DNA of 27,038 nt from Elusimicrobiota bacterium (GCA_043827405.1 JBDRPD010000007.1:1-27038), one strand, 5' to 3'; positions 4,286 through 23,235 are shown, numbered from the stretch's first letter. Notes: a model not told the origin generated them from the letters alone. Translations and numbers: made by a program.

Positions 4286-6970
4286 ATGAAGCGAATCCTG
4301 GCTGCGAGTACGGCGCTGGCGGTAATGTTCGGCCCGGTGGCCGATCAAGCGCCCGCATACGCCGCTCGTTTTGTCGCGCCGGTCGGGCAGACGGGAAAGG
4401 CGCCGCGTATGCCCGTACCGCCCGCCGCTCTCACCGGGCGAACGGCGGCCGTCGAAAGCTTGCAGAATTTTAACGCCTTTACCCTGCAGTCGGCCCTCCC
4501 CGGCATAGATCCCGCCGGGACCAACGCGCCGGTCAAGCGGAGCATTAAGCCGCTCGCCATTTTGCCCCGAATACAAGTCATGTCCGCAAGCGGACAGCGA
4601 ATCGTCATACCCGCCCGGCAGCGGCAGGCGATGCAAAAGACGCTAAATAAAGTAAAGCAGGCCGCCGGCCGGCTGCCCGCCAAGGGAAAAGCCGCGAATA
4701 TGAGCGCCGCGGACGCCAAACTGCACGGCTCCAGACTTTTCGACGCCTTCCGCGGCGCGGCGGATGAGGCGGATATGCGCGGAGTCGACACCGCCGGCGG
4801 CACGGAGCGAACCGCTGCGCGCCGTTCCCGAATCGTCCGCCTGCTGACGGCGCCGCTGGGCCGCTTGTTTTCAACCGAGCGCCGTACCGGCGAAACCCGA
4901 GCCCCCCCGGTTCCCAGAGCCCGCACCCGTTTCGACCGCGATGCCTATGGTGGCCCGCGGCCGCTGAATCTGCGGGCCGCTAAAAAGTCCGGACGCTTCG
5001 CCGGGCTCCGCGGGTTGTTCGGCACAATGAGGAACTACGTTCTTTTCAGCGCCAAGTGGGCGCTGAACATGACCGGCATCGCGACCGTAATCGGCCTTAC
5101 GGTCAAACCCATCGCCGCGCTGCTTCCCTGGCAACTCCATGTATCCGACACGTTTTTAAACCTTACCGGGCGCATCGAACTGCTGACCGGCCTCGGCCAT
5201 CAAGGCGTCGTCGATGCGGTCTCGTCCGCGCCTGGAGCGTTTCTCTTCCGAGATATGCCGTATATGGTCGGCATGGAGGAGATCACCTACCGCCTCCTCG
5301 GCTTCGGCCTGACATTCCTGGCCCTCGCGGCGCTCAAACCCCTAATGACGCGCCTGCAGAGCTTCCTTAAGGACCTGCCGGACCTGTTCGGTCTCCCCAG
5401 CACGGGGATCCGGCTGGCGCGCCTGCTCGGCGCGCTGTCCGGCCTCGCCTTCCCGGCGGCGCTGCTGCTCTCTTCCTTCTCATTTGCCGCCGCGCATATC
5501 GCGGCTTGGGGCTTTGGCCCCGCAGTCTACGCCGTCCACTTGGTGCTCGGCATGGCCCTCGCCTATCTCGCCTACCGGACGCGCGGAATACTCGTACCGC
5601 TCCTGACCCACTTCCTATTCAACCTCGGCACGATCACGGTCGGGGTCCTCCTGCCCCTGGCGCTGCTGCCGGCAGCCTCATCGGTCTTGATGACGCTGAC
5701 CGGCGTCTTCAGCATAGCCTTCCTGTGGTACAACTACCGGCTGCACCGCAAAGCCAAGGCGGCGGCTCTCGCCGAGGCGCGCGGCCTCGCGCCCCCGGCC
5801 CGCGGGGCCCGGTGGCGCCGCGCCCTGACAGGACTTCTAATCATCCCCCTTATGCTCGGCGCTTTTTACGTATTTTCTCCGGGCAACGCCTCCCGCGCAA
5901 ATGCGATACGTCAGAGAAGCGCCTATATGGCCTCCGTTCAGCACCGAAATGGAATCAAGGACCTCCGCCAAGTCGGCCCGTTCATGCTTGAGGAGCTGCC
6001 GGAGCTGCTCAACGTCCACACCCCGAAAGCCGCCGGCGCCGCGGAGAGAAAGGACCTCAGCACCGTCGAGATCACCCAGCGCGCCAAACCCGCGATCGTC
6101 ATGGTGCGCACCGACAAGGGCATGGGGACCGGCTTCATCATCGACGCCGGCGGGCTGCTTGTCACCAACGCGCATGTGGTCTCGCTCGGCGTCGAGGCAG
6201 CGCAAAGCGGACCCAAAATCTCCCGCCGGCACGTCGACCGAGTCATGATCCTCTTCTCCAATGGACGCGAAATCCCGGGCCTCGTCGTCGGCTACAATGC
6301 GGATAAGGACATCGCGCTGGTCGCGCTGCCGCCGAATCCGCTCGGCTGGCCGACTGTTGAAATCGGCGACAGCTCCCTGCTGCAGGAAGGGGAGCGGATC
6401 GTCGCCATGGGACATCCGCGGGGCCTGCCGTTCTCCGTCTCGGAAGGCATCGTCAGCGGTCTCGATTTCCGCCACAACGGCTTCGTCGGCTTCATCCAGC
6501 ACGACGCGTCCGTCAACCCGGGCAACTCCGGCGGCCCGCTGTTCAACGCCCAAGGGGAGGTCGTCGGCATCAACTCGCTGATTATGTCTTCCGGCGGCGG
6601 CTTTGACGGCATCTCCTACGCGATTTCCGCGGCTGATCTGCAACAAGCCCTCGCGCAGTTCAAGAAAGTCCGCAATATCGATACCGGCTGGATGGGCGCG
6701 ATCTTCTATCCGGCCAGCCCGGACGCCCCCGGCTACGGCCTCTATGTGGACGCGGTCCGGCCGGGCTCCCCGGCGGCGCAGGCCGGCCTGCAAGCCGGCG
6801 ACATCGTCCTGGAGATCGACGGCCAGAAGCTGGCCAACAGCCCCCAGCACGCCGCCGCCCAGGTCGCCAAAACACTGCGCGAAAAAATACCGTCAGATGA
6901 GGCGGTGCTCGCGATCTCGCGCGGCGGCGATATCCAGACGCTGCGCATCAGCTTGGGCGCCCGCGACTAG
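4286..6970 (+). CDS. Fusion: signal peptide/leader + CPBP (Abi/CAAX-type II) intramembrane glutamic protease + HtrA/DegP-type trypsin-like serine protease + PDZ
   Basis: CPBP motifs MEEITYR, FAAAH, THFLFN among several TM helices; trypsin triad TNAHVV, DIALV, GNSGGP; PDZ GSPAAQAGLQAGDIVLEIDG. Start at ATG 4286 gives signal-like MKRILAASTALAVMFG..AYA. Confidence 0.85.
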   Translation: MKRILAASTALAVMFGPVADQAPAYAARFVAPVGQTGKAPRMPVPPAALTGRTAAVESLQNFNAFTLQSALPGIDPAGTNAPVKRSIKPLAILPRIQVMSASGQRIVIPARQRQAMQKTLNKVKQAAGRLPAKGKAANMSAADAKLHGSRLFDAFRGAADEADMRGVDTAGGTERTAARRSRIVRLLTAPLGRLFSTERRTGETRAPPVPRARTRFDRDAYGGPRPLNLRAAKKSGRFAGLRGLFGTMRNYVLFSAKWALNMTGIATVIGLTVKPIAALLPWQLHVSDTFLNLTGRIELLTGLGHQGVVDAVSSAPGAFLFRDMPYMVGMEEITYRLLGFGLTFLALAALKPLMTRLQSFLKDLPDLFGLPSTGIRLARLLGALSGLAFPAALLLSSFSFAAAHIAAWGFGPAVYAVHLVLGMALAYLAYRTRGILVPLLTHFLFNLGTITVGVLLPLALLPAASSVLMTLTGVFSIAFLWYNYRLHRKAKAAALAEARGLAPPARGARWRRALTGLLIIPLMLGAFYVFSPGNASRANAIRQRSAYMASVQHRNGIKDLRQVGPFMLEELPELLNVHTPKAAGAAERKDLSTVEITQRAKPAIVMVRTDKGMGTGFIIDAGGLLVTNAHVVSLGVEAAQSGPKISRRHVDRVMILFSNGREIPGLVVGYNADKDIALVALPPNPLGWPTVEIGDSSLLQEGERIVAMGHPRGLPFSVSEGIVSGLDFRHNGFVGFIQHDASVNPGNSGGPLFNAQGEVVGINSLIMSSGGGFDGISYAISAADLQQALAQFKKVRNIDTGWMGAIFYPASPDAPGYGLYVDAVRPGSPAAQAGLQAGDIVLEIDGQKLANSPQHAAAQVAKTLREKIPSDEAVLAISRGGDIQTLRISLGARD

Positions 6971-7042
6971 CCGCTATTCCTCGCCTTAACGCCGCGCAAA
7001 ATTCTATGATCTGGAAACCACCCTTTTCCCAGGAGAGACTCC

Positions 7043-8392
7043 ATGAAAGCACAGGATCAAAAGATTGTCATCTGCGGCGGCATGCGCACACCTATCGGCC
7101 ATTTCGCCCGCTCGCTCGCCAACTACTCGGCATCCGAACTGATGCGGCTGGCCGTCGAGTCCACCATTAAGAAGGTCGGCGTTAAGAAGGAGGATGTCGA
7201 CGGCCTGTTTGTCGGCTGGGTCGGGCAGGACTTCAACGCTCCGAACCTCGCGCGCGTCACGCTCCTCAACTCCGGACTGCCGGAAAAGGCGCAGGCCGCG
7301 ACGCTGCAGAACAACTGCATCTCCTCGATCGAGGCGGTCTCCATGGCGGCCCGCTGCATCCTCGCGGGCGAGGGCTCGCTATATATCGCGGGCGGCACCG
7401 AAGCGATGTCCCGGCTCCCATATTCCATCTCCGGCTCGCGCGCGGCCGACGAGCTGCGCTCCTTCGACGTAGTTAAGGAAAAATGGGGAGAACTCATCGG
7501 CAACGACAACGTCACCGTAGTCGACGCCATGGAGCAGGGGCTTACCGACCCGGTCAAGGGCATTAACATGGCGGCGACGGCCGAGGTCTGCGCCCAGCTG
7601 CGCGGCATCAGCCGCGAGGACCAGGACAACTTCGCCTACCAGAGCTTCAAGCGCTCGGTCGAAGGCTGGGAGGCCGGTTTCTATAACGACCACGTGGAAC
7701 CGATCAAAGACGGCGACACCGTCATTCTCGACAAAGACGAGTATCCGCACCTCCGCATCAACCTCGTCAAGAAACCTAAAATGTTCAGCAAGTCTCCTGC
7801 CCTCTTCGACAATTCGAAGTACCCGATCGCCGATTTCTTCCGCGACTTCGGCAAGTTCATGGACGGCAAGTCCAGCCCGAACGGGAACTGCGGGACGGTG
7901 ACCCTGTTCAACGCCTGCGGACGCTCCGACGGCGCCGCCGCTATCGTGGTAACGACCGAGGCGCGCGCCAAAGAGCTCGGCCTGCCGATCGCCGCCGAGC
8001 TCAAAAGCTGGGGCTACTACGGCAACGACCCGGCGCATATGGGCGTCTCGCCGGCCCTGGCGACCCCGGTGGCGCTCGAGCGGGCGGGAATCCAGTTCGC
8101 GGATCTCGACCAGATCGAGCTCCACGAGCCTTTCGCCGCGACCGTCCTCGGCATCTTCAAGGACGGCAAGGAGAAGTTCGGCCACGACTGGCAGGCGAAG
8201 TACGACAGCGGCGCCCTCAACCCGAACGGCGGCTCGATCTCGATCGGCCATCCGCTCGGCGCGACCGGCATCCGCCTCGTCCTCAACCTGCTGGAGTCGC
8301 TCAAGCGCAACGACAAAAGCCGGCTCGGACTGGCGGCGGCCTGCGCCGGCGGCGGCATGGGCGGCGCGCTCGTCGTTGAAAAGCTCGCGTAA
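7043..8392 (+). CDS. Thiolase family protein (HEPF variant)
   Basis: QNNCISS (catalytic Cys), HEPFA, GHPLGATG, CAGGGMG; AGGAG Shine-Dalgarno upstream. Confidence 0.92.
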   Translation: MKAQDQKIVICGGMRTPIGHFARSLANYSASELMRLAVESTIKKVGVKKEDVDGLFVGWVGQDFNAPNLARVTLLNSGLPEKAQAATLQNNCISSIEAVSMAARCILAGEGSLYIAGGTEAMSRLPYSISGSRAADELRSFDVVKEKWGELIGNDNVTVVDAMEQGLTDPVKGINMAATAEVCAQLRGISREDQDNFAYQSFKRSVEGWEAGFYNDHVEPIKDGDTVILDKDEYPHLRINLVKKPKMFSKSPALFDNSKYPIADFFRDFGKFMDGKSSPNGNCGTVTLFNACGRSDGAAAIVVTTEARAKELGLPIAAELKSWGYYGNDPAHMGVSPALATPVALERAGIQFADLDQIELHEPFAATVLGIFKDGKEKFGHDWQAKYDSGALNPNGGSISIGHPLGATGIRLVLNLLESLKRNDKSRLGLAAACAGGGMGGALVVEKLA

Positions 8393-8404
8393 TAGAACCT
8401 AAGT

Positions 8405-8444
8405 AAAACGCCGGCACCTATTTGCGGTGCCGGCGTTTTCTTTT
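8405..8444. terminator. Bidirectional rho-independent terminator
   Basis: AAAACGCCGGCACC-tatttgc-GGTGCCGGCGTTTT perfect hairpin followed by a T-run, between convergent genes. Confidence 0.9.
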
Positions 8445-8447
8445 GCG

Positions 8448-9041
8448 CTAGTGGCAGGCACCGAAAAAACCGGTGCCGAAGAAGCTCGTCCCCTCTTTAG
8501 TCTTCCCCATCTTGCGGTATTGGCCGATCAGGGCCTCGAAGGGATCCTTCGGCATCATGAAGTAGCGTTTGCGCTCCCGGTCCTTCTTTTTCTTCGGCTG
8601 CTGGTAGATCACGGTAAACGAGGTCTGCTCGATCAGTTCGCACTCGGTGCACTTGGTCTTCTTCATCAGCCACTGCGCCTCATCCTCGAACACCTCAAAG
8701 AATCCAATGCCCATCAGCAATCCGACATAGTCCTCCGTCTCCCGCTTTTGCTCGCACTCCAGGATGGGCTCAAGGCCGGCGCGCCGGATCGGCGGCCGCC
8801 TTTTCCCGTCCGCGGCCCGCCGCAGCGCGTCGAGCTCGTCCTGCCGGGCACGGCAGCGCGCGCGCAAGTGCCGCGGCAGCCTGCTCGCGTCGACCGCCAT
8901 GAACTTCGGGATCAGCTCGGCCGGCAGGGCCGGGGTCTCGACTTCAAGGAAGCGCTCGACGAAGGCGGCGAGGTCGGGCACGGCCTTCTCGGCGCGAAGC
9001 GGCGGCGCGAACAGCAGCAGGGCGATGAGCGCTAATGGCAT
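8448..9041 (-). CDS. Exported hypothetical protein, GACH-terminal paralog 2
   Basis: Start at ATG 9041 gives signal peptide MPLALIALLLFAPPLRA; aligns along its length with 9032-9691. Confidence 0.8.
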   Translation of the reverse strand: MPLALIALLLFAPPLRAEKAVPDLAAFVERFLEVETPALPAELIPKFMAVDASRLPRHLRARCRARQDELDALRRAADGKRRPPIRRAGLEPILECEQKRETEDYVGLLMGIGFFEVFEDEAQWLMKKTKCTECELIEQTSFTVIYQQPKKKKDRERKRYFMMPKDPFEALIGQYRKMGKTKEGTSFFGTGFFGACH

Positions 9042-9691
9042 GCCCCGTTGAACGAGCCGAAGAAGTTCGTGCCGCCCCCGCTGCCCGTATTCCGATATGC
9101 CGCGATGATCGCCATCCAGGGGTCGTTGGCGCTGAGAAAATTGTAGCGCACCAGCCCGTTCTTCTTGCCCGTCGGGACAAGCGTCACCTTCAGGGAAGAC
9201 TCGACCATCAGCTCGCATTCAGAACACCGCGTCCGCTGCATCAGATGGTTGAGCTCGTCGTCGCTAATCTCCTCAAAACCCATCTGCGTCATCATTTTCA
9301 CATACTGCAGCGTACCCTTCTCCGGCTCGCATTCGGCAGGGGACGGCGCCTCCTGGCCGGCGCGGCGGATAGGCGCCTTCCTCCTGTTGGCCGAAATCTT
9401 TCTCAGCGCCTCCAGCTCCGCCTTCTTCGCCCGGTGCTGAACCCGCAGCTTCAACGGCAAAGAGCCCGGATCGATCGCCATAAAGCGCGGGATCAGCGTC
9501 GGGTCAAGTTCGGAAGTGTCGGCTTTGATGAAGTACTCAACAAGCTTCACCGTGTCCTTGTCCGCGGCGGCTTTCGGGCTTGGGGCGGCGGGGCTCCCGC
9601 TTTTCTTCGCGCGCTTATTTCCGCCCTGCGCCGGCGCCGCGGACACGGCGACGACCAGGAGCAGCGCCGATATGCATGCCGGCCATCGCAT
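9032..9691 (-). CDS. Exported hypothetical protein, GACH-terminal paralog 1
   Basis: Signal peptide MRWPACISALLLVVAVSAAPA; shares LIPxFMAxD, PIRRAG, CxECEL and FFG..GACH with its neighbour. Confidence 0.8.
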   Translation of the reverse strand: MRWPACISALLLVVAVSAAPAQGGNKRAKKSGSPAAPSPKAAADKDTVKLVEYFIKADTSELDPTLIPRFMAIDPGSLPLKLRVQHRAKKAELEALRKISANRRKAPIRRAGQEAPSPAECEPEKGTLQYVKMMTQMGFEEISDDELNHLMQRTRCSECELMVESSLKVTLVPTGKKNGLVRYNFLSANDPWMAIIAAYRNTGSGGGTNFFGSFNGACH

Positions 9692-9742
9692 ACTTAGACT
9701 ATAACAGCCCGGGACGCCAAAAGCCATGGGAGCGGGCGGGGG

Positions 9743-10630
9743 CTATTTTCGCGGATGATGGCGCCGATGCGACTCTTTGAGCACCGACTTGTCGAGGTGG
9801 GTGTATATTTGAGTGGTGGACAAGTTGGCATGGCCCAGCATTTCCTGTACCGAACGCATATCCGCGCCGCCGCGCAGCAGATGCGACGCGAAAGTGTGCC
9901 GCACGAGATGGGGGTGCAGCGGCTGGCGCAGCTTCGCCCGCCGGCCCAGCTCCTTAAGGTCCCGCCACAGCTGAACGCGCGACAACACCTTCCCGGAGCG
10001 GCCGACAAAAACTTCCGGCGCGGTCGAGCGCTCGCCGAAATGCTGCTCACGCAGGCGCAGATAGCGCTCCAGCTGCTGCCGCGCCCGCTTATGGACCGGA
10101 ATCATGCGCTCTTTCGAACCCTTGCCGATCACCCGGATCCACCCCTCTTCGAGATTGACGAGCTCGGCGCGCAGCGAGAGCAGCTCCGAGGCGCGCATCC
10201 CGGTAGCGTAGAGCAGCTCGAGCATAGTCTTCGCGCGCACCAGGGGCAGGGAGTTCCCGTCCTCCAGCCGCAGCAGGTCATCCATCTCGTCAAGCGAAAG
10301 GAATTTCGGCAGCCGCTCAGGCAAGTGGGGCGCCTTAAAGCCGCGCGTCGGGTCCTCAGAGATGCGCTCTTCGGCGACCTGGAAGCGGTAGAAGGCGCGC
10401 AGCGCCTCCATTTTGCGAAAGATGGAGACGGCTTTAAGCTTACAGTCCGACTTCAAGTGCCAGACGTAGTCCTCCAGCAGGCGCGCGTCCGCCCGGTTCG
10501 GGTCGCGCCGCCCCAGCCACCGCAGATAGCCGGCCGTATCGGCGGCATACGCCGCGCAGGTATTATGCGCGAGCCCCCGCTCCAGGGCGAGATACTTCGC
10601 GAACTCGCCGAGAAGCGGGGACTCTGGCAC
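9743..10630 (-). CDS. xerD: Site-specific tyrosine recombinase XerD
   Basis: ERGLAHNT N-terminus, LELLYATGMRASEL, GKGSKER, HLVRHTFASHLL, VQEMLGHA, TTQIYTH, C-terminal HHPR. Confidence 0.88.
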   Translation of the reverse strand: MPESPLLGEFAKYLALERGLAHNTCAAYAADTAGYLRWLGRRDPNRADARLLEDYVWHLKSDCKLKAVSIFRKMEALRAFYRFQVAEERISEDPTRGFKAPHLPERLPKFLSLDEMDDLLRLEDGNSLPLVRAKTMLELLYATGMRASELLSLRAELVNLEEGWIRVIGKGSKERMIPVHKRARQQLERYLRLREQHFGERSTAPEVFVGRSGKVLSRVQLWRDLKELGRRAKLRQPLHPHLVRHTFASHLLRGGADMRSVQEMLGHANLSTTQIYTHLDKSVLKESHRRHHPRK

Positions 10631-10647
10631 GGGGACTTCCGGATGCG

Positions 10648-11787
10648 TCAGGCCTTCGCCGCTTTTTCCACGCGCGAAGCCTTGACCGCCTCTTTTTCCA
10701 CGAGCGGTGCCTTGGCCGCTTCTTTTTCCATAAGCTGGGCCTTGGCCGCATTTCTTTCCGCCGGCGAAGCCTTGGCCTGGTCGGCGGCGAGCTGAAACTT
10801 CTCACGCAGCTTCATCTCGATCTCCCGCGCGATTTTCGGCGAATCGCTCAAAAAGCCCTTGGCGTTCTCGCGGCCCTGTCCGAGCCGGTCGTCCTTATAA
10901 AGGAACCAGCTTCCGGATTGTTCTATAAGACCGGCCTCCACTCCCATCTCCAGGAGGCAGCCTTCATGCGAGATTCCATGGCCGTGGACCATATCAAAGA
11001 TCGCCTGGCGATAGGGCGGCGCAACCTTGTTCTTAACGACCTTCACGCGGCAGCGCGCGGCGACGACGACGTCGCCCTTCTTGATATTTTCGATGCGGCG
11101 GATATCCAAGCGCACCGAGGCGTAAAACTTCAACGCCATGCCGCCCGTTGTCGTTTCCGGGCTGCCGAACATGACGCCGATCTTATGACGCAGCTGGTTG
11201 ATGAAGATCAGACAGGTGTTGGAGCTGGAGATGGCGGACGTCAGCTTGCGCAGAGCCTGACTCATCAGACGCGCCTGCAGGCCCGGCAGGCTGTCGCCCA
11301 TCTCGCCCTCAATCTCCGCCCGCGGCACCAGCGCCGCGACCGAATCGACGACAATGACGTCGATCGCCCCCGAACGCACCAGCTTTTCCGTGATCTCGAG
11401 CGCCTGTTCGCCGGAATCGGGCTGCGAGACCAGCAGGTGTTCAGTGTCCACTCCCAGCGCCTTGGCGTAAGAGGGATCCATGGCGTGCTCGGCATCAACA
11501 AACGCCGCGGTACCGCCCGTCTTCTGCGCCTGCGCCACCACATGCAGCGCGAGAGTGGTCTTGCCGGAGGACTCCGGGCCGTATATTTCCACGATGCGGC
11601 CCCGGGGGAGACCGCCGACGCCCAACGCCATATCCAGCGAAAGCGCGCCGGTCGGAATTACATCAATCTTGGTCTTGGCGGCCTTGTCCCCCAACCGCAT
11701 GATCGATTCACGACCATACGCCTTCTCTATCTGCGCCAGCGCCAACGACAGCGCCTTGTTTTTTGCGTCCTGCGTGTTTGCCGCCAT
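10648..11787 (-). CDS. recA: Recombinase RecA
   Basis: GPESSGKTT Walker [40 protein letters not shown]. Confidence 0.99.
10661..10780. repeat. Four imperfect 30-bp tandem repeats in the recA 3' end
   Basis: Units start at 10661, 10691, 10721 and 10751 (consensus ~TCTTTTTCCAnnnnnnnnGCCTTGGCCGCn), encoding AKA...EKEA decamers. Confidence 0.85.
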
Positions 11788-11832
11788 ACAGTCTTCCCCC
11801 TGCCATCAATCTTTAAATTTTTCAGCACTTCA

Positions 11833-11861
11833 AGTTTACTGTACAAATGTACAGTTGTCAA
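11833..11861 (-). promoter_or_regulatory. recA sigma70 promoter with LexA (SOS) box in the spacer
   Basis: Minus strand TTGACA (11861-11856), 17 nt, TAAACT (11838-11833). The spacer holds CTGT-ACAAATGT-ACAG (11839-11854). Confidence 0.85.
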
Positions 11862-11864
11862 GCC

Positions 11865-12395
11865 CTATTTTTTAAACGGCCCAAAATAGCTCCTTTCCAT
11901 CAACTCCTGGCTGGTCCGCAGCTCCTGCCCCTTTTCCGTCTTAATCTCCGCCTTGGCGACCGCAAGCACCGTGCTGGAATCCCACCAGAAATAGCTCTCC
12001 CGATAGCGCCGCGGTTCGCCGTAGATCAGCGAAAGGTCCACCGCCAATTCCCCGAACGGCTTCTGCCGCGAATACTCCTTGTCGTATACCAGCCGTATAT
12101 GCACCAACCGTCCCCGCCGCATGCCCAAGAGCACCGTCTTGACCTTGGCGGGAAACCATTCCGAATCTTCCCGCTCAATACGGATACGAACGACCCCCCC
12201 TTTTGGTTCCTTCTGACGCTGCCACTTACGGGTGGGAGGATAGACCATTTCGATCTGCTTGATGCCGTCTCCCAGGCGCAGGCTGGCGAGATAACGCTGA
12301 ATGGAAGACTGTGCGGAGGCCGGGCGGGAGGCCGCCAGCAGCAGCACGGCAAGAGCCGCAGCGCCTGCGGCTAAAAATCGCGAGGCCGGATTCAT
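11865..12395 (-). CDS. Exported hypothetical protein
   Basis: Signal peptide (LAAGAAALAVLLLAASRPASA); packed tightly between neighbours; no recognised family. Confidence 0.75.
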   Translation of the reverse strand: MNPASRFLAAGAAALAVLLLAASRPASAQSSIQRYLASLRLGDGIKQIEMVYPPTRKWQRQKEPKGGVVRIRIEREDSEWFPAKVKTVLLGMRRGRLVHIRLVYDKEYSRQKPFGELAVDLSLIYGEPRRYRESYFWWDSSTVLAVAKAEIKTEKGQELRTSQELMERSYFGPFKK

Positions 12396-12400
12396 AAGCG

Positions 12401-13495
12401 TTAGGGAGCCGCGGTCCCGGATGATTCGCCGGGCGCTTTCGCGTACAGGCCAAGATCGCTTTGATAGTACTTGAACGTAATAACCCCCAGCTGCGAGATA
12501 AATTCCTTCGCTTCCCCGTAGCCGCGATTGCGGCCCGTCAAAACGGTAACGGCATAGTCGCCCTGCGGCGAGAAGATTACCCCCGAGTCGTGGCAGGCCC
12601 GGCGCAGCAGGCCGGTCTTGTGGGCGATGCTCCAGCCCGCCGGCAGCTTCTTGGCCAGCCGGTAACGGCGCGGATAGCGCCCTTTCAGGATTTCCAGCAT
12701 AAGCTCGCTGGCGAAGCGCGTCACCATTTGGCCCCGGTAGACCTTCTCCATAAGAAAGGTCATCTCGCGCGCGGTTGTGTAGTTTTCATAACGCACCCGT
12801 CCGCTCTGCAGGCTCAGCCCCTCGGGGTAGAGCTCGGTATAGACCAGCCCCATCCGGGGGAACTGGTTCTGCATATAACCGACCCCGACCTCATTGAGCA
12901 GTATCCGCATCGCCGTATTGTCGGAGTTGTGGATGAGCTTATCGAGGAGCGCGCGCACGGTAAAGCGCGTCCCGTCCCGCTTCCATTTGATCCGTCCCGA
13001 ACCGCCCATGCGGTTGCGGCGGCTAAGCTTAAGGCGGGAGTTGAGCGACAGCTCGCCGTTGTTGATCTTTTCCATCACGCCGATCATAATGGGGACCTTA
13101 ATCAGGCTCGCCGAAGGAAACAGATCGTCGGCATGATAGCTCCATTCATAGCCGCCGGATAAATCCTTAATATGAATCGCAACCTGGGCCGAAGTGCGGG
13201 CGACGTACTGCTGCGCCGCGTACTGCAGGTCTTCTGCCATGCGCGCAAAACGAATGCGCGCCGGATCGTCCTTGTCGTCGGGGATAACGACGGCCTCTTC
13301 TTCGTCGTCATCGTCGCGCACCAGATCGGCGCGGTCCTCCACGACATGCTGCGCGCTGGGAGACAGCCGGGACTCGGTATAGGTCAGGTAGACAACCGGA
13401 AGCAGCACCAGGATCACCGCAAACGGGATGCCCGCCCTTTCCGAAGGCACCCAGCTCAGCGTCGTGATGACGCGGTCTACGAGCTTACGACGCAT
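12401..13495 (-). CDS. Membrane-anchored serine hydrolase, class A beta-lactamase / PBP-A fold
   Basis: SxxK (ASLIK), SDN and KTG motifs; N-terminal TM helix and acidic linker. Confidence 0.88.
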   Translation of the reverse strand: MRRKLVDRVITTLSWVPSERAGIPFAVILVLLPVVYLTYTESRLSPSAQHVVEDRADLVRDDDDEEEAVVIPDDKDDPARIRFARMAEDLQYAAQQYVARTSAQVAIHIKDLSGGYEWSYHADDLFPSASLIKVPIMIGVMEKINNGELSLNSRLKLSRRNRMGGSGRIKWKRDGTRFTVRALLDKLIHNSDNTAMRILLNEVGVGYMQNQFPRMGLVYTELYPEGLSLQSGRVRYENYTTAREMTFLMEKVYRGQMVTRFASELMLEILKGRYPRRYRLAKKLPAGWSIAHKTGLLRRACHDSGVIFSPQGDYAVTVLTGRNRGYGEAKEFISQLGVITFKYYQSDLGLYAKAPGESSGTAAP

Positions 13496-13501
13496 GGGCT
13501 T

Positions 13502-15967
<2,466 letters not shown>

Positions 15968-16104
15968 ATTTTCCTCGCGCGCGGGAGCCGCTAAACGGTC
16001 TTACTAAGGAACAACTCTCCCACGTTATATTATGGTGCGACTATGTTACCAATTCAGACAGGGCAAAACCTCTATAAATACCTACGTTTACGCCAATTAT
16101 AAAT

Positions 16105-16193
16105 TTCCCGAGAGTCCCAAAACTGCCTGGGCCTAATAATTTTCTGGAAATTCCCGACAGACCCATAGCCATTTTGCGCGGCCATTATACAAT
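16105..16193 (+). promoter_or_regulatory. Putative regulated promoter with direct repeat TTCCCGA[GC]AG[TA]CCCA and -10 TACAAT
   Basis: 13/15-identical direct repeat at 16105 and 16151; motif array matches 4198-4278; TACAAT at 16188-16193. Confidence 0.55.
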
Positions 16194-16276
16194 GGTGCTG
16201 CCGTTCGGCCTTATGTTACGCAGGGAAGACTACGGGAAATCAGCGGAAAAGACGAATCCCGCGAGAGGATAGTCGC

Positions 16277-19200
16277 ATGAACCCAAACAAGTTCCTAGTC
16301 AGTCTCTTCACCCTTGGATTTTTCACCACCGCCGTACATCCGCCGCAAGGAAGCTGTACGGCGCTCCGCGCGGGAAGCGCGGGGCGCGCGGCACGGGGAG
16401 CTCCCGTCCGCGCCGTTCCCCCGCTGCTGCAAAACAACCTGAAACCCGTAACAAATCCCGCCTTCACCGGCGGGATCGGTTTTTCTGTGCTGCCGAAACT
16501 GGAAACGATTTCACCTTCTCTCGGCCTGCCCTCCACAGAAAACAACGTGACCGTCGCCCCCTTCGCGGCGAAGGTCTCGGTCGGCGGGCAAACGGTCGGC
16601 ATCGGCGGCGGTGTCGCCGTGCATGCGAACAAACAAAACAAGAAGGTCGGCGTCGCGGCTTCGGCGCGCGAGTTCGCCGGAAGCTTGAAAAAATCCGGCG
16701 TCAGCGCGGCCGGTAAAATCCGCGCCTTTTTCGACGGACACCTCAATGCCGATAATACCAACACCGCCGTCGGCGGCGACGGAGCCTCATTCGCTCCCGC
16801 TTCGCGCGGCCCCCTCAATGAAGTCGTCTTTCGCGCGCTAAAAGACGGCAGCGATATCCGCACCAACCTTCCGCGCACGTTGGTCATCAACGACGCCTAC
16901 ATTAAAGGCGCCCCCGCCGCGACCGTCAGCCGCCTGCAGACGCTTATTAATGAGGGAGTGCACCTCGTCATCCTCACCGACCGCGCGGACCGCGGCCCCG
17001 GATCGATCGATGAAATTCTGCTCTCCAAGCTGACGCCGTCCAAGTCCAACCCGATCACCGTCGCCAGTCACGCCGGCGCGCGTATTTCCTTCGTCGAGGC
17101 CGGCGCCAAATGGAAGGTCGCCAGCGAAGCCGGCGCCTTTGAGACCCGCGAGATCAGCCGCTTCAGCGAAATCGCCGCACGCGTAAACCGCGCCGCCAAG
17201 CTCAGAAACGTCCCCGCTCGCACCGAGTCCCCCGCAAGCGGCGATACGCTGTCGGTCACCTTCAGCCTAAAGGGCCGGGACCGCCAGGGCGACGTCGCAC
17301 GCAAGCGTCGGGCCTTCATGCTGAAGTTCAACCAGGCGATGAAAGCGGCGCGCCTTCCCTACCAGATGAAGGCGCATCCGAGCGATGAGAGCGCCGCCGT
17401 CATCCAGGCGATCACGCCCCGCCTCGCGCTCGGACGCATCGATCGCGAACTCGGCAAGCGCTTCGCGGACGAAAACCTTTCAGCCAAAGGCAATGAAACC
17501 ATGGTGCTGCTCGATGCCCGCGGCTCCGAGCCGCTCATGCGCACGATCACGGCCGATCCCGAATCGGTGCCCGGCCTGTTCCGCGGCGCCTCGGTAGTCG
17601 ACGCCGGCGACGCCGGCGCGCAGGCGACGGCGCTCGGCGCGGTAACTGAAGCCTCCGAGCTTAACCCGGTCGATGTTTCAATGAGCGATATGCGCCAGTA
17701 CCTCGACTTTTGGCGGCCCGTAGTTGGGCGCAGCGGCAAAACCCCGAAGCAGAGCGCCGGCACCTCGTCGGGCCGCTACGGGCTCTATACCTGGCAGGTG
17801 CTGCACGATCTGCTGACCGACTTCTACGTCGACGCGGCACGATCGGGCAAGAAGTACACCAACGTCAAGAAATTCCTGGACGCCCTGCGTATGCGCTGGG
17901 CCGGAAAAGCCAAGGACGCGTCGTTTGAGCGCTACCGCGGCACTCAGGGCGGCAAGGTCGCCGACGCCGCCTACCTGGGCCACGCCCTGCGCTTCGCCGG
18001 CAACTTCTGGCAGCGCGAGATCGGCAACTACAGCCTCGCCCAGCAGGAAATCCGCGAAGACCTCATGACCGAGGGCAAGGTCTATACCAAAGTCCCGCTG
18101 CGCTCGCCGTTTACCGGCCGCAAATACGCGCTCGGCGTATCCGTGGACCGCGTTATGAAGCTCGATACGGCCAATGGGCGCGAGCTCAACGCCACGGTCT
18201 ACCGCTTCGGTAAAGAGGGCGCCACGGACGGCGATGAGGCGCAGGCCCGCGCCGTGGCGCTGGCCACGCTGCGCGGCTACGGCCGCAAAGGGCTCGACCT
18301 TAAGTGGCACCAAGGCTCGGCGCAGGGGCCGGTCCTCTCCCGCATCACGGTGCAGATCGAGCATCTAAACCGCCACAATATGTACGACTTCACGCCGGAC
18401 GATCTGCTCAAGATCGAAGCCGACGGCTCGATCTCGCAGGGCTCGGCCGCGCTCAAGCTGGTCAACGAAATCGAATCCGCGCAGGCCGACTTCAAATACC
18501 TCGCCTCGCAGAAGAAAATGCGCCGGCTCGCCGGCCCGCAGGAATGGGACGGCGACGAGTGGACGCAAAAGGGCGACGCCGTGCGCGAGCTGTTCGGCTC
18601 CTACTTCCCCAACGCCCCGACCGCGGAGCGCCTGCGCCCGTTTTTGAGCGAGGCCGAAGCGCTGCGCCCGAAGACCGCGACCCCGCGCGACCCGGTCGAG
18701 GTCTTCTCCGCTCCGATAGCCTGGCCCCAAGGCAAGCCGCCGGCGCCGATCGACGAAGAAGGATCGCAGATCGAGGAAGATCTCGAAGCCTCGCACCGCG
18801 TAGTCTTTATTGAAGACATCTTCACAAATCCCGCTGCAGACGAAGTCGTCGACCGCATCCAGCGCCTGATCGACGCCGGCGCCCATGTCGTCTTCATGAC
18901 GGCGCGGCCGCATAAGGGCGAGAACTCGGCCGACACCGTGCTGCTCGCGCGCCTCAAGGCCGGCCGCGCCAACCCCATCATCGTCACCAGCTACAACGGC
19001 GGCCGCATCGCGCTGCATTCGCGGGCAAAAGACCCCAAAGCCTACATCCCCGACAGCCGCGCTTTTACCGCGGCCGCGATCAAAACCTTTGACGCGACGG
19101 CCGGCGAGCTGGCGGCCGAGTTCGACCTAGCGCTCGAAGCCGAGGCGGTGCCCTCCAAGGGCTCGCCGTTCCAGTACAACCTCTGGATTCCGCAGTCGGT

Positions 19201-20557
19201 CCCCGCCGCCGAGCTCGCGACGACCCGCACCCGGCTCATAAAGCGCTTTAATAAATCGCTGGCCGCTGAGGGGCTGGAGTACTCGATCCAGGCTCATCCG
19301 GGTCATCCGCGGCAGCTGTGGATCCGCTCGCAGCCGATGCGCCTCTCGCTCGACCGCGTCTTCCAGGCGCTCGATCAGCGCTTTAAAGGAGAGGACTTGC
19401 TCGCTCATCCCGACCAGTTTCTGGTCATCGGCAACTCCAAGCGCTCGCTTCACCTCTCGAAAGCCTGGCCCAAGCAGGCGACGTTCCGTGCCGCCCAAAA
19501 CGACACCGAGATCAGCAACCATCTGGGCGGCGTGCTCGGCAACCGCAAGCGGGACACCGTCGGCGTCAAGCTCGGCGAGATCCGCTCCTACGATGAGTTC
19601 TGGGAGCCGATGCTCGAGCGCCGCGCCGGTCACTTCGGCACGGAGGCCTCGCAGAGCCACCGGCTGAGCGAAGAGGACCGCCGCTACCACGGCCCGCTGG
19701 CAATGTTCACCGGCTCCATCATGTACCGGCTGATGCCCGAGCTCTTTGAAGCGATCTGGCGCGGCCAGGACCGCACGTCGACCAAGACGCAGGGCCTGCA
19801 GCGTATTCGTCAGATGTGGGCCTTCCCTGAACGCGAAGGCGTCTTCGTCAGCAAGCGACAGGCGTCGGTCATGAACGAGGAGGGATGGAAGAGCCGTTCG
19901 CGCGGCTACCTCGAGCGCGCGCTGACCTTCTTTAGCGAGATCTACGACCGCGCCTTCGAGAACTACAGCGAGGCGGCCCAGGACATCCTGCACAATATGG
20001 CCGGCCTCACCACCGACCGGCAAAGCCTGGTTACTTTGGTCTTTAAGGCCAGCGGCAAGCTCTACAAGGTGTTCACGCGCCTGCCGCGGCTGATGAAGCA
20101 CGATACCGAGGACGGCCGCGTCCTTTCAGTCATCGCCTACCGCACCGGCAAGGAGCCCTTCGAGGGCGACGGCGACGGGGTCTACGCCAAGACGCTGGCG
20201 ATGACCATGCTCGTCGGCTTCGCCCAGCCCGGCCCCGACCGCCGGTGGCATGACGGCTGGCCGCATGGCCCGAAGATCGCCAAGCTGCACGTGCGCCTGG
20301 AATACAAGCAGGGCGCGCGCGACCTCTACTTCGATCCCAACGACTTCTTCCGCATTCAGGCCAACGGCAAGTACCGGCAGGGCGTCGCGGTTCAGGAAAT
20401 CGCCAATATGATCGAGCGCATGCGCGCCGATGATGAGTTCCAGGAGCATTTCAAGGCCGAGAACGAACAGGCGACCGCCGAAGAAATCAAGGAAGCCAAG
20501 AAGAAAACAAAGGGGACCGGCAAGAAGCCGGTCGACAACCGGAGGGTAAAGAAATGA
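16277..20557 (+). CDS. Large signal-peptide-bearing protein with two tandem [degenerate HAD-IIB + inactive PD-(D/E)XK nuclease-like] modules
   Basis: 1426 aa with GAGAGGA SD. Internal duplication from ~aa 199 and ~aa 840 (e.g. GVHLVILTDR/GAHVVFMTAR, NPITVASHAGARI/NPIIVTSYNGGRI, VYRFGKE/AYRTGKE, WHQGSAQGP/WHDGWPHGP); homologous to the downstream gene. Confidence 0.7.
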   Translation: MNPNKFLVSLFTLGFFTTAVHPPQGSCTALRAGSAGRAARGAPVRAVPPLLQNNLKPVTNPAFTGGIGFSVLPKLETISPSLGLPSTENNVTVAPFAAKVSVGGQTVGIGGGVAVHANKQNKKVGVAASAREFAGSLKKSGVSAAGKIRAFFDGHLNADNTNTAVGGDGASFAPASRGPLNEVVFRALKDGSDIRTNLPRTLVINDAYIKGAPAATVSRLQTLINEGVHLVILTDRADRGPGSIDEILLSKLTPSKSNPITVASHAGARISFVEAGAKWKVASEAGAFETREISRFSEIAARVNRAAKLRNVPARTESPASGDTLSVTFSLKGRDRQGDVARKRRAFMLKFNQAMKAARLPYQMKAHPSDESAAVIQAITPRLALGRIDRELGKRFADENLSAKGNETMVLLDARGSEPLMRTITADPESVPGLFRGASVVDAGDAGAQATALGAVTEASELNPVDVSMSDMRQYLDFWRPVVGRSGKTPKQSAGTSSGRYGLYTWQVLHDLLTDFYVDAARSGKKYTNVKKFLDALRMRWAGKAKDASFERYRGTQGGKVADAAYLGHALRFAGNFWQREIGNYSLAQQEIREDLMTEGKVYTKVPLRSPFTGRKYALGVSVDRVMKLDTANGRELNATVYRFGKEGATDGDEAQARAVALATLRGYGRKGLDLKWHQGSAQGPVLSRITVQIEHLNRHNMYDFTPDDLLKIEADGSISQGSAALKLVNEIESAQADFKYLASQKKMRRLAGPQEWDGDEWTQKGDAVRELFGSYFPNAPTAERLRPFLSEAEALRPKTATPRDPVEVFSAPIAWPQGKPPAPIDEEGSQIEEDLEASHRVVFIEDIFTNPAADEVVDRIQRLIDAGAHVVFMTARPHKGENSADTVLLARLKAGRANPIIVTSYNGGRIALHSRAKDPKAYIPDSRAFTAAAIKTFDATAGELAAEFDLALEAEAVPSKGSPFQYNLWIPQSVPAAELATTRTRLIKRFNKSLAAEGLEYSIQAHPGHPRQLWIRSQPMRLSLDRVFQALDQRFKGEDLLAHPDQFLVIGNSKRSLHLSKAWPKQATFRAAQNDTEISNHLGGVLGNRKRDTVGVKLGEIRSYDEFWEPMLERRAGHFGTEASQSHRLSEEDRRYHGPLAMFTGSIMYRLMPELFEAIWRGQDRTSTKTQGLQRIRQMWAFPEREGVFVSKRQASVMNEEGWKSRSRGYLERALTFFSEIYDRAFENYSEAAQDILHNMAGLTTDRQSLVTLVFKASGKLYKVFTRLPRLMKHDTEDGRVLSVIAYRTGKEPFEGDGDGVYAKTLAMTMLVGFAQPGPDRRWHDGWPHGPKIAKLHVRLEYKQGARDLYFDPNDFFRIQANGKYRQGVAVQEIANMIERMRADDEFQEHFKAENEQATAEEIKEAKKKTKGTGKKPVDNRRVKK

Positions 20558-23235
20558 CGACAAATATCATGCTCCGGTCCCTGCTCGCAGTCGCCATCGC
20601 CGCCAACAGCATTTCGCCGGCCTGCGCCGCCGCCATGGTGGTGCCCAAGCTCGCTCCCGGCGTCTCGCCGTCGGTCGGCGCCGCGGGAGCGGCCGGCATC
20701 GCCGCCGGAGGCATGCGCCTGCATAATACAACGCTCAGCCCGTCGCTGAGCGCCTCGCTTCCGACGCTCGGCAATTCGCTGGCGCGGCCGCAGAACCTGA
20801 ACAGCGAAGTCGCCGTCAAGCCGCGGGCGCTACGGCACACCGCGGTGCAGGACGTTAACGGCCGCGTCGCCCCGTCCAAACACCAGGGCAGCCTGGGACA
20901 GGGGACCCCCTATAAGGCCGCCGCCGGCAAAAGCGAAACGGTACGCCACACCGTAGCCGCCGTGCATCAGGGCCGCGGCGGCAAAATAAATGCCGCCGCG
21001 CTGGGCAGCCTCTTCGAGCAGAGCGTCGGCCGGCGCGGCGTGGTCAACGCCGCCGACAATCTCGATGTCGACGCCGCCGGGGATGCCGTCTTTGCGGCCG
21101 AGGCCGCAGCCGATGTCGTCCCGACCGTCGAAGAAGACGCTCTTGACCTCTGGGTCGGCAAGACCGCGCAGAAGGGAATTTTCGACTCCAAGATCTCGGC
21201 GTCGATTCGCCCCATCAATAATACCCGCAGCGAGTGGTTTTGGGGACAGTATCAGAAAAAGCTGCCGATCCGCGTCGTTTCCGGCGGCCGCGTGCTGTTT
21301 ATCACCCGCATCGTCAAGGCCGGCACCAAGAAGATCAAGGCGTTGACCCTCGATGACTTCAGGGCCTACTACGGCGCCCGCTCCATCGCCAAGCGCGCCG
21401 GCGAGAACGACGCCAAGCAGCTGGCGCGCCTGCGCCGCAAGCTTCTCGAAGAGATCAAGTGGAAGTCCCAGCGCAAGATCAACGCGCCCAAGGTCATCAG
21501 CGAGGAAACCAAAGTCCGGGTGCTGAACTTCCTGCCCTACAACCAGGCTCGCGAACTGCCCGAAAACGGCATCGAGAAGACGCCCGAAATCCGCGCGCGC
21601 AAAGAGCTGGCCGTCCCCGCGGAGCTCAAGGACCTGCAGCGCATGCTGCCGCGCCTGGTGCTCTTCGATCTGCGCCTCTACGGGGATCGCATCCCCTTCG
21701 ACGTGCTTGAAGACATGGGCAAGCTGCAGAAGGCCGGCGTCACCTTCGTCTTCCTCTCCGACAAGACGCAGGATGAAGTCGAGAAGATGATCCGCCGCGA
21801 CACCCCGGCGCAGCAGCAAAACGAGATCACGCGCTGGAAGCTGCTGAGCCTCTCCAACGACGGCAACACCCTCTACGGCTTCTCCGGGTCCTTCGAGGAG
21901 CTCAAGGCCTCGCGCAAGTTCGCGGCCGACGAGCGGGAAATGCTGAAGTACGCGGCCCAGGCCGCCGCCCCCGAAGGCATTATCGTCGAAGACCGCGGCT
22001 ACGTCCTTTCGCTCCGGCCCAAGCGCGGCGTCGCCATCTCCGCGCTTAAAAAATCGATGCAGCGCCAGCTCGACCGCTTCGGCATGCCGGACGGCTCCTA
22101 CGCGCTGACCGTCGGAGAACATGAAGGCTCCCCGGTCGTGCGGGTCCGCCCGACCACGCTGAGCCGCTCGTTCGGCCGGCTGATCAAGGACCTGCAGGTT
22201 GAAGAAGGGCTTTACCTCAACGAGCAGAATATTCTAACCGTCTCGGATGACGCGGAGCTCCACGCCGCGCTCCCCAACGCCATGCACGCGGGCCCGGTCA
22301 TGCCGCAGGCCACGGCGCGCGAGGACTACATCGAAACCGCGCTGGCGGCGATGCTCGGCTCATACCGCCACAACCGGCAGGGCGATCTCGCGGCTTCGGC
22401 CTCGTCGATCAAATCCTTCAAGTTCAAGCGCTTCGGCGGCGGCGGCTTTGACTACCGCATCTACATGCTGATGGGCCACGTCGCCCACACCGCGCTCGAC
22501 TGGGCGATCATGAAATACAACCAGGCGGGCGAGCTGCCGCCCTACGAAGAGCTCATCGCCAAGTCGCGCGAGATTTGGGAGAAAGAGCAGATCGGCGTGA
22601 CGACGAACCTGCTTGAGAAATCGCGCGAACGCACGCTGGGCTACCGCGACTCGATGGAAGCGCGCATGTTCACGATGTATCAGGAGCTCGAGCGCACGCT
22701 CAAGATCTACCCCATCGCGCTGGGGACCGAGCTGCCCAACCTCATGGTCCTCGACCGCTACAACGCCTCCGGAGAGCAGACCCACCGCGACATCTTCCGC
22801 GGCCTCTACGATCTGGTTCTGGCGCGGAAGGTGGAGGGCGGGCTCGACGTCCTGGTCGCGGACTTCAAGTCGGGCCAAACCCCGGCGCTCCAGCATATGG
22901 CCAAGGACACGCAGGTACTGCTCTACGACTACTTCTCCAAGGTTATGTGGCCGACGATCACCGTGCCGTACTCGCTGGCGCACAAGCTGCAGAAGGTCGT
23001 AAGCCGCTACGTCGGCTTCCTGTATCCGCGCGGCATGCAGGGCGTGACGATCACCGAGTTTGACCGCCTGTTCTTCGAGAAGTTCCTCTTCAATATCATG
23101 AACCGGATGCGCAAGCACAAGCGCGTGCTGACCGAAGACATGATCGCGGCGGAGACCAAAAAGGCCGAGCGCGAGGCGCGCCAAGCCGCCAAACAGTCCG
23201 CAGCCGAAAAGAAGACTCCCGCGAAGAAGAAGTAG
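20554..23235 (+). CDS. Signal-peptide-bearing protein: ASCH-like + degenerate HAD-IIB + RecB/AddB-type PD-(D/E)XK nuclease
   Basis: ATGA-coupled to the upstream gene. Nuclease motifs SASSIKSF, MGHVAH, TELP, RGLYDLV, ADFKSG, QVLLY; HAD-like RLVLFD, GVTFVFLSDK, SNDGN, ILTVSDD; ASCH-like KISASIR...KALTLDD...VRVLNF. Confidence 0.75.
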   Translation: MTTNIMLRSLLAVAIAANSISPACAAAMVVPKLAPGVSPSVGAAGAAGIAAGGMRLHNTTLSPSLSASLPTLGNSLARPQNLNSEVAVKPRALRHTAVQDVNGRVAPSKHQGSLGQGTPYKAAAGKSETVRHTVAAVHQGRGGKINAAALGSLFEQSVGRRGVVNAADNLDVDAAGDAVFAAEAAADVVPTVEEDALDLWVGKTAQKGIFDSKISASIRPINNTRSEWFWGQYQKKLPIRVVSGGRVLFITRIVKAGTKKIKALTLDDFRAYYGARSIAKRAGENDAKQLARLRRKLLEEIKWKSQRKINAPKVISEETKVRVLNFLPYNQARELPENGIEKTPEIRARKELAVPAELKDLQRMLPRLVLFDLRLYGDRIPFDVLEDMGKLQKAGVTFVFLSDKTQDEVEKMIRRDTPAQQQNEITRWKLLSLSNDGNTLYGFSGSFEELKASRKFAADEREMLKYAAQAAAPEGIIVEDRGYVLSLRPKRGVAISALKKSMQRQLDRFGMPDGSYALTVGEHEGSPVVRVRPTTLSRSFGRLIKDLQVEEGLYLNEQNILTVSDDAELHAALPNAMHAGPVMPQATAREDYIETALAAMLGSYRHNRQGDLAASASSIKSFKFKRFGGGGFDYRIYMLMGHVAHTALDWAIMKYNQAGELPPYEELIAKSREIWEKEQIGVTTNLLEKSRERTLGYRDSMEARMFTMYQELERTLKIYPIALGTELPNLMVLDRYNASGEQTHRDIFRGLYDLVLARKVEGGLDVLVADFKSGQTPALQHMAKDTQVLLYDYFSKVMWPTITVPYSLAHKLQKVVSRYVGFLYPRGMQGVTITEFDRLFFEKFLFNIMNRMRKHKRVLTEDMIAAETKKAEREARQAAKQSAAEKKTPAKKK

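Follow-up and report, generated by a model that had tools for sequence, protein, structure and literature searches.

A shared N-terminal leader on unrelated signal-bearing proteins in an order of Elusimicrobiota is a candidate post-Sec sorting signal

Three leader-bearing proteins in one genomic window

The DNA analysed here, called the window, is the first 27 kb (27,038 nucleotides; GCA_043827405.1 JBDRPD010000007.1:1-27038) of contig C7 in the genome (4.33 Mb, 98% complete) of an uncultured groundwater Elusimicrobiota bacterium, and the element in question is an N-terminal leader carried by three of the encoded proteins. A first-pass annotation had proposed that the open reading frames (ORFs) starting at 4286, 16277 and 20554 share a Sec-like signal peptide followed by two short motifs at nearly identical offsets. 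All three ORFs are genuine; GAGAGGA stands upstream of 16277, and the start at 20554 overlaps the stop of the preceding ORF. Named homologues of window proteins come from Elusimicrobiota.

Leader protein 1 (4286..6970, plus strand, 894 residues) consists of the signal and leader, an Rce1/CAAX-type membrane protease region, and an HtrA protease with a PDZ domain. Its signal peptide and leader occupy 4286..4760 (plus strand), with LPGI at 4496-4507 and LFD at 4736-4744. Leader protein 2 (16277..20557, plus strand, 1426 residues) contains an internal tandem duplication (27% over 580 residues, E 1.7e-61) and, judged from its sequence, is probably composed of two modules, each with a HAD-like and a degenerate nuclease-like part; its signal peptide and leader lie at 16277..16750 (plus strand), with LPKL at 16490-16501 and FFD at 16727-16735. 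Neither protein has any Cys after residue 45. Leader protein 3 (20554..23235, plus strand, 893 residues) starts with a signal peptide and leader at 20554..21030 (plus strand; LPTL 20758-20769, LFE 21010-21018), followed by an ASCH domain (residues 191-334, Z 9.8), a HAD-IIB fold lacking the second Asp of DxD (359-601, Z 13.5) and an AdnA/AddB-type nuclease (607-857, Z 14.9), in which D753, D770-F-K772, Q787 and Y791 are unvarying across 18 sequences. The domain calls first made for proteins 1 and 3 were thus borne out. The structure prediction for protein 3 has a predicted local distance difference test (pLDDT) score below 50 for residues 14-134 and 136-196, and a PDB sequence search with this protein returned nothing useful. 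A protein 2 homologue adjoins a protein 3 homologue in 8 of 9 loci of other genomes.

The leader defines a protein family

To describe the leader beyond the window, 3421 genes were called with a simple hexamer model and searched with an iterated hidden Markov model (HMM) begun from 14 other proteins, the window proteins being excluded. The profile recovered the three window proteins at E values of 2.4e-5, 8e-5 and 2e-9 and had no match among the other exported proteins of the window, as the annotation had claimed. In all, 69 matches were obtained at E<0.01, with scores descending through 45, 36, 32, 22, 21, 20 and 17 to values of 13 and below; two of these were halves of one gene split at a contig end and were dropped, leaving 67 members. 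In five-fold cross-validation on residues 26-190, which leaves out most of the signal, 62 of 67 held-out members scored at least 10 bits, compared to 1 of 1340 composition shuffles and 4 of 2335 scorings of other signal-peptide proteins (467 proteins in five folds). The held-out scores of proteins 1, 2 and 3 were 17.5, 12.9 and 25.0 bits. The outcome that would have undone the annotation, motifs no commoner than in shuffled N-termini, did not occur, and the dozens of diverse proteins that it anticipated were found as 67 members with unrelated cargo.

Both motifs are present in the window proteins as described, with LPGI, LPKL and LPTL beginning at residues 71, 72 and 69 and LFD, FFD and LFE at 151, 151 and 153, which places the Phe at 152, 152 and 154. 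The near identity of these offsets holds for the three proteins, while across the family the spacing is loose (10th-90th percentile, LP 65-84 and FD 142-177). A third motif, GAAGA, located past the signal peptide, had been overlooked. LP-type motifs were found in 52, FD-type in 42 and GAAGA-type in 37 of the 67 members, against shuffle means of 8.5, 4.5 and 2.5. Loosened forms of the LP and FD motifs occur together in 32/67 members, compared to a shuffle mean of 0.5 (maximum 5 in 1000) and 3/467 other exported proteins; 17 of the 49 members that did not seed the profile have both. The consensus order is a signal peptide (often ending PG..A.AA), G[A]AGAA, L...LP, a basic helix and FD[GN]. The leader spans about 150 residues and is predicted to be disordered. 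Among 16 protein 3 homologues its identity is 16-37%, compared to 38-84% for the cargo, and the FD-type motif is kept in 15 and LP in 9 of the 16. No Pfam row covered any leader among 70 proteins scanned, and an ESM Atlas search with the leader gave only matches below 0.9.

Range searches used a 50-leader alignment as query. Of 12 genomes of the order, 11 contained the leader, each in several copies; of 189 genomes elsewhere in the phylum, 3 yielded one short match each, confined to the signal part. At E ≤ 1e-6, 79 of 101 genomes within the order were matched, a figure that must be taken as a minimum, since the profile misses leaders that have diverged. Among 1.84 billion proteins, 176 matched at E ≤ 0.001, and all 150 among the matches listed hit at the N-terminus. 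Twenty of these matches were looked up, and the seven clusters with an organism name comprised six Elusimicrobiota and one Patescibacteria. The latter, P0152, is a leader-bearing ABC transporter, and its label may reflect mis-binning or transfer. The leader is a real feature that is mostly limited to one order among the genomes searched.

Signal peptides and cargo topology

Signal peptides were judged by n-, h- and c-region heuristics only, by which the leader proteins resemble substrates of Sec and signal peptidase I: the median n-region charge (+2) and h-region length (14) are the same as in the 467 controls, and an AxA-type site is found in 67/67 with the loose pattern used. A twin-arginine motif and a lipobox Cys were each seen in 1/67, which argues against Tat and lipoprotein signals. 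The N-in charge pattern of ordinary signals is present in 61/67. A second hydrophobic segment reaches a Kyte-Doolittle (KD) value of 1.6 in 3/67 and of 1.9 in 0/67.

The MFS transporters among the cargo provide a topological marker. MFS N-termini are cytoplasmic, and in 7/7 MFS cargos no helix separates the leader from the MFS domain. An excess of Lys and Arg on the leader side is clear in four (33:2, 27:2, 15:6, 9:2). From these sequence features, the leader of all seven MFS cargos is predicted to be on a cytoplasm-type face. In protein 1, Arg/Lys-rich stretches precede the first and last helix, which would place the leader on the inner side and HtrA on the outer. If an N-in signal were cleaved, the leader would instead lie in the producer's periplasm, with no second hydrophobic segment to return it. 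The MFS topology and a cleaved signal are in conflict, which suggests either that the cargo ends up in some membrane other than the inner membrane of the producer or that the signal is not an ordinary one.

Cargo repertoire

Pfam families were assigned to 45 of 70 proteins scanned (the 69 matches and one marginal). Proteases number 14 (S8, M50, M48, M3, M28, S41, Lon, Rce1, HtrA); ATP-driven machines include two Clp-type AAA proteins and MoxR with vWA; and transporters comprise seven MFS, SDF, ABC and MscS. The others include RNase R, Endonuclease I, EEP, three HD proteins, PLD, Fic, a nucleotidyltransferase, PPK2, adenylate kinase (ADK), uridine kinase with cytidine deaminase, glycogen synthase (GlgA) and two amylases. 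Scanning 58 of 124 matches in other genomes added FtsH, rhomboid, RND, P-type ATPase and MutS-like cargo. The statement in the annotation that the cargo domains are unrelated therefore holds well beyond the window, with proteases, nucleases, kinases and transporters on one leader, while the integral membrane cargo had escaped it; many cargos are polytopic or ATP-requiring, of kinds whose usual place of action is within a cell.

A leaderless paralogue exists in the genome for 26 of 69 proteins, including ordinary GlgA, ADK, PPK2, ClpC, RNase R and MoxR, and Walker A or catalytic motifs are present in 8 of 12 cargos checked. Gene clustering is weak (6 adjacent pairs, compared to a random mean of 1.3 and maximum of 6), and no recurring non-leader neighbor suggesting a receptor was found beside leader genes. 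In two families, a Cys-free barrel-like exported protein is encoded directly upstream of a leader-bearing S8/HEAT protease (G000:C83:143198-144610 and G026 L141).

Cysteine depletion

The cargo is nearly devoid of cysteine. It contains 12 Cys in 48,530 residues (0.25 per 1000), with none in 60/67 proteins. For comparison, in classes assigned by heuristics, the rate per 1000 is 12.7 for cytoplasmic proteins (869), 9.5 for membrane proteins (239) and 5.4 for other exported proteins (467). This is a depletion of about 50-fold, while Met is at 1.33 times the cytoplasmic level. Among proteins of at least 400 residues, 52/62 leader members lack Cys, compared to 44/257 other exported proteins, and in 25 aligned pairs the cargo has 3 Cys to the 50 of its leaderless paralogues. 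An independent set of 98 matches of at least 300 residues from other genomes has 0.51 Cys per 1000, with 79/98 lacking any. The remaining Cys include motif residues, as in EPCGL of GlgA and PCGHC of the deaminase.

Sulfur sparing or general avoidance of oxidation was rejected as the cause of this purge on the grounds that Met is not depleted. The cell's own DsbA/B system was also rejected: DsbB was found in 0/5 genomes (VKOR in 1/5), and no even-number Cys bias was seen in the cargo. If disulfide avoidance is the cause, the oxidizing space may be the medium or the periplasm of a target cell. Cys-rich exported proteins do exist in genomes G000, G001, G013 and G027, in which both DsbB and VKOR were not found. 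In the window itself, two neighboring similar signal-bearing proteins at 8448-9727 (minus strand) have 4-5 Cys and no Pfam family.

Candidate secretion loci

Known secretion systems were examined for a machine that could read the leader. A type II secretion system (T2SS) / type IV pilus (T4P) locus with secretin, GspE/PilB ATPase, platform and pilins is present in genome G000 (C66:112-123 kb), as are Tad/Kil genes (RcpA secretin, CpaF ATPase, Tad pilin-like; C83:127-135 kb and C1:70-72 kb), whose names other than those from two Pfam searches were assigned from sequence. Both kinds of locus are shared with a leaderless genome, and three secretins occur in leaderless genome G082 as well. Substrates of the T2SS are soluble and folded in the periplasm, which does not describe the many cargos noted above. 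The shared C-terminal sorting domain of type IX secretion was not seen, the last 14 residues of 69 proteins being unrelated by inspection and the C-terminal domain (CTD) family being absent among the best five Pfam rows per protein. Neither was the domain of two-partner secretion (TPS), with no Pfam rows over the leaders and the low pLDDT of the protein 3 leader. Omp85-family proteins gave 7 matches in G000 and 4 in an out-of-order genome, and no recurring Omp85 neighbor emerged from 57 short loci. G000 has BamA-type and secretin genes typical of an ordinary outer membrane.

One leader protein is a Cys-free giant of 5435 residues. Its central part (residues 2750-3750) was modelled as a KdgM-like, porin-like barrel with TolC-like repeats (pLDDT 73; Foldseek E 6e-6 to TolC), and a PDB sequence search with a giant segment gave nothing useful. 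Giants were found in 85/101 genomes of the order, 2/2 of a sister family and 0/187 others. The gene at G000:C22:34432-50814 (L042) and its paralogue at C99:25740-37835 (L131) encode Cys-free proteins of 4000-5600 residues in which N-terminal helices are combined with a small beta-barrel and TolC-like repeats. In three genomes from two families (G000:C22:50879-51907, G017 L118, G029 L113; 52-53% identity), the giant has immediately upstream of it an IS200/REP-type tyrosine transposase with a DnaA-like helix-turn-helix, possibly domesticated.

The operon upstream of the giant encodes two Tad-type pilin-like proteins, an FtsH-like protein, Gly-rich hairpin proteins and unknowns of 883, 1083 and 3018 residues. 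It was located at G000:C1:70169-78650 and C22:50879-73168 (L128, L129), G017 L137 and G288 L208-L209. The Gly-rich paralogues, 4-6 per locus and 11 by motif in G000, have EK..KKG N-termini and C-termini with TP[YW]Q and a hydrophobic hairpin. A Cys-rich protein is also encoded; the unknowns are without a Pfam family and resemble translocator pores by layout only.

Losses of these elements were also compared. Leader and one core cargo appeared to be co-lost in 16 genomes (16/22 compared to 13/79, Fisher p 1e-6, the related genomes not being independent). Seven of seven giants recovered from such "leader-negative" genomes have a diverged leader-like N-terminus and 0-4 Cys; in this recovery, 9/27 loci were missed by the motif filter and one extraction was faulty. 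Co-loss of leader and machine was dropped as an argument, as most "leader-negative" calls reflect profile sensitivity. Genus g94 is the only one in which leader, core cargo and giant are all missing (3/3 genomes). In G018 (L217, L218), the operon is kept, the giant has 10 Cys and no recognizable leader, and the core M48 cargo is missing, a possible decay of the system.

Interpretation and alternatives

Taken together, the data lead us to favor, at a little better than even confidence, a reading in which the leader is a sorting signal that acts after Sec and by which cargo is delivered, unfolded, to the cytoplasm and inner membrane of a contacted bacterial cell. It is favored because of the cysteine purge, the second-copy ATP-dependent enzymes and the MFS topology; the range of unrelated cargo, the signal features shared with other exported proteins and the leader-bearing giant with its TolC-like and porin-like folds also count for it. 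On balance, delivery into a contacted bacterium would account jointly for the signal, the purge, the second copies, the ATP dependence and the topology. The first-pass annotation had also proposed a second-step signal for delivery to another cell or compartment; the shared post-signal leader on unrelated cargo stands, while its destination in another cell is less secure, as no machine that tracks the leader was found and a tether to the producer's own membrane or an internal compartment would be alternatives.

The n-, h- and c-region features suggest that the cargo would be exported by Sec and trimmed of about 25-35 residues by signal peptidase I. The disordered remainder of about 130 residues, with GAAGA, LP and FD[GN], would then be read by a lineage-specific factor that may hold the cargo unfolded and pass it to a contact-dependent machine, from which it would arrive in the cytoplasm or inner membrane of the contacted cell. 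There, proteases, nucleases, phosphohydrolases, kinases and glycogen/polyphosphate enzymes could degrade and redirect the contents, and inserted transporters could let products out to the attacker, as epibiotic predation or parasitism. Cys would be purged because the unfolded chain passes an oxidizing space, perhaps the target's periplasm. A bolder version, possible in our view and somewhat short of an even chance, is that the order has an unnumbered Sec-dependent delivery system that installs 12-helix transporters, RND/ABC/P-type pumps, all membrane-protease classes and ATP-driven machines in another bacterium, which would thereby become a compartment for feeding, perhaps drained via the tagged TolC-like protein of 4000-5600 residues.

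Several results weigh against delivery into another bacterium. Type III SctV/FlhA (PF00771), for which controls were detected, type VI TssC/VipB (PF05943) and type IV VirB4 (PF03135) were each found in 0/5 genomes, and profiling of secretion genes, which the annotation had recommended, turned up no machine that tracks the leader. The giant and the Tad-linked operon are candidates, but the occurrence of neither follows that of the leader exactly. In G288 (99% complete), where leader cargo is kept, the giant's locus does not contain it; this genome and four others weaken the giant as an obligatory translocon. The operon marker is present in 93/101 genomes of the order and also in 12/13 of a family without leader and core cargo, for which reason the hairpin operon was rejected as a leader-specific machine. 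Charge counts are uninformative in the other three of seven MFS cargos, glycogen synthase is anabolic, and, given the DsbB and VKOR counts, disulfide formation by the producer itself does not account for the purge. We know of no precedent for 12-helix proteins crossing Sec without insertion. The literature searched yielded no account of members of this lineage acting as predators.

Four other explanations were considered. The hydrophobic segment could be a re-entrant or inverted anchor that is not cleaved and that tethers second copies of enzymes and transporters to a special region of the producer's inner membrane, their cargo parts staying in the producer's cytoplasm. No new machine would then be required to meet the demand for ATP and the MFS topology, in keeping with the failure to find a dedicated translocon, and PG after the h-region in 28/67 members compared to 37/467 controls could form a hairpin turn. 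However, this leaves the thiol-specific purge relative to cytoplasmic and membrane proteins unexplained, polytopic proteins require no additional anchor, the charge pattern is that of ordinary signals, and the conserved motifs lie 40-130 residues past the hydrophobic segment; we consider such a tether unlikely, if the strongest of the four. Somewhat less likely still is sorting to another compartment within the producer that contains ATP (an internal membrane body, an energized intermembrane space, or a daughter or resting cell) and is equipped with separate enzymes for proteostasis, transport and storage. This would agree with the export, the topology and the second copies, and the cargo does make up a consistent set, with every class of bacterial membrane protease, Clp/Lon/FtsH, transporters, ADK, PPK2 and GlgA, but no respiratory, ATP-synthase or biosynthetic cargo was seen among 128 proteins scanned, destructive nucleases, Fic and PLD are included, and the genome encodes the BamA-type and secretin proteins of an ordinary outer membrane.

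A eukaryotic host such as a protist, with cargo acting in its cytosol or vacuole membrane in the manner of the Chlamydia glycogen enzymes, appears improbable. GlgA and amylases are among the cargo, Chlamydia is described as secreting GlgA and phosphoglucomutase (PMC3722199; 10.1101/2020.10.11.335026), and a UBA1565 genome was obtained from a non-axenic amoeba culture, although that culture contained other bacteria too (PMC9476967). Against this, the cargo is bacterial inner-membrane machinery (RND, FtsH, MscS, HtpX- and S2P-type proteases), ankyrin, LRR, F-box and U-box domains are absent among the best five Pfam rows per protein, and most genomes are 3-5 Mb. We give very little credence to the idea that the leader is a linker or propeptide of low complexity that gene fusions have spread and that sorts nothing, the cargo simply being set free in the periplasm or medium: its disorder and fast evolution speak for this, but its motifs are kept while the flanks diverge, shuffles fail to score, and released ATP-dependent and polytopic cargo could not work.

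If cargo reaches another cell, the leader would represent a new secretion class. It would also assign a lifestyle to an order that is widespread and uncultured and whose members have hitherto been described as aerobic heterotrophs, and it would directly answer the question of how an epibiotic predator can feed across the envelope of its prey, a matter treated as unresolved in PMC12428579. The weaker readings too imply a novel membrane-sorting route, and the tag with Cys absence gives a simple rule for listing substrates. No description of the tag turned up in the titles and abstracts of literature on Elusimicrobiota secretion, predation, lineage or leaders. The strings "secret", "pili" and "predat" are absent from a groundwater Elusimicrobia preprint (10.1101/765248), and "Elusimicrob" is absent from the accessible portions of a 2025 predation review and PMC13755416.

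Comparison with known systems

The leader is outside every secretion family tested, and the destination of its cargo is what we infer. To our knowledge, no bacterial system uses a single N-terminal tag, acting after Sec, on soluble enzymes as well as on polytopic membrane proteins. Eukaryotes have bipartite leaders, such as the apicoplast signal and transit peptide, Plasmodium PEXEL and oomycete RXLR. In these, too, many unrelated cargos carry a signal peptide joined to a low-complexity stretch in which short motifs are found; the likeness is one of analogy only, implying no homology or common machinery.

CdiA is delivered in a contact-dependent manner, and passengers of two-partner or type Vb secretion (T5bSS) are large and cysteine-poor, as are the leader proteins. 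The order of a Sec signal and an N-terminal second-step signal is also alike: TpsA has a signal peptide and an N-terminal TPS domain that is read by TpsB (PMC8047123). In contrast to TpsA, the leader is disordered and matches no Pfam family, dozens of unrelated cargos, polytopic ones among them, share the one tag, and a cognate TpsB was not seen in adjoining genes. In Chlamydia, a type III secretion signal has been added to housekeeping glycogen enzymes (10.1101/2020.10.11.335026; PMC3722199), which is again an N-terminal tag on housekeeping-type enzymes that act beyond the producer's cytoplasm. Here the signal is Sec-type, SctV/FlhA was not found, and the cargo suggests a bacterial-type target.

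Among predators, Myxococcus uses the Tad-like Kil system together with a type III secretion system that lacks the needle (T3SS*), and Bdellovibrio exovorus feeds epibiotically (PMC12428579). The Tad locus, extra Tad-type pilin genes and hydrolase-rich kit of the present lineage are reminiscent of both, while it has no T3SS*, a shared effector leader is not mentioned in the available text of that source, and predation by this lineage is only proposed. In Omnitrophota, giant proteins beside T2SS-like loci have been proposed to serve predation (10.1101/2023.11.21.568195, which in its available part cites Elusimicrobiota for gene size only). Giant multi-domain membrane proteins with hydrolase domains and a proposed predatory role are common ground, with the difference that in the present order the domains are on separate proteins under one common tag.

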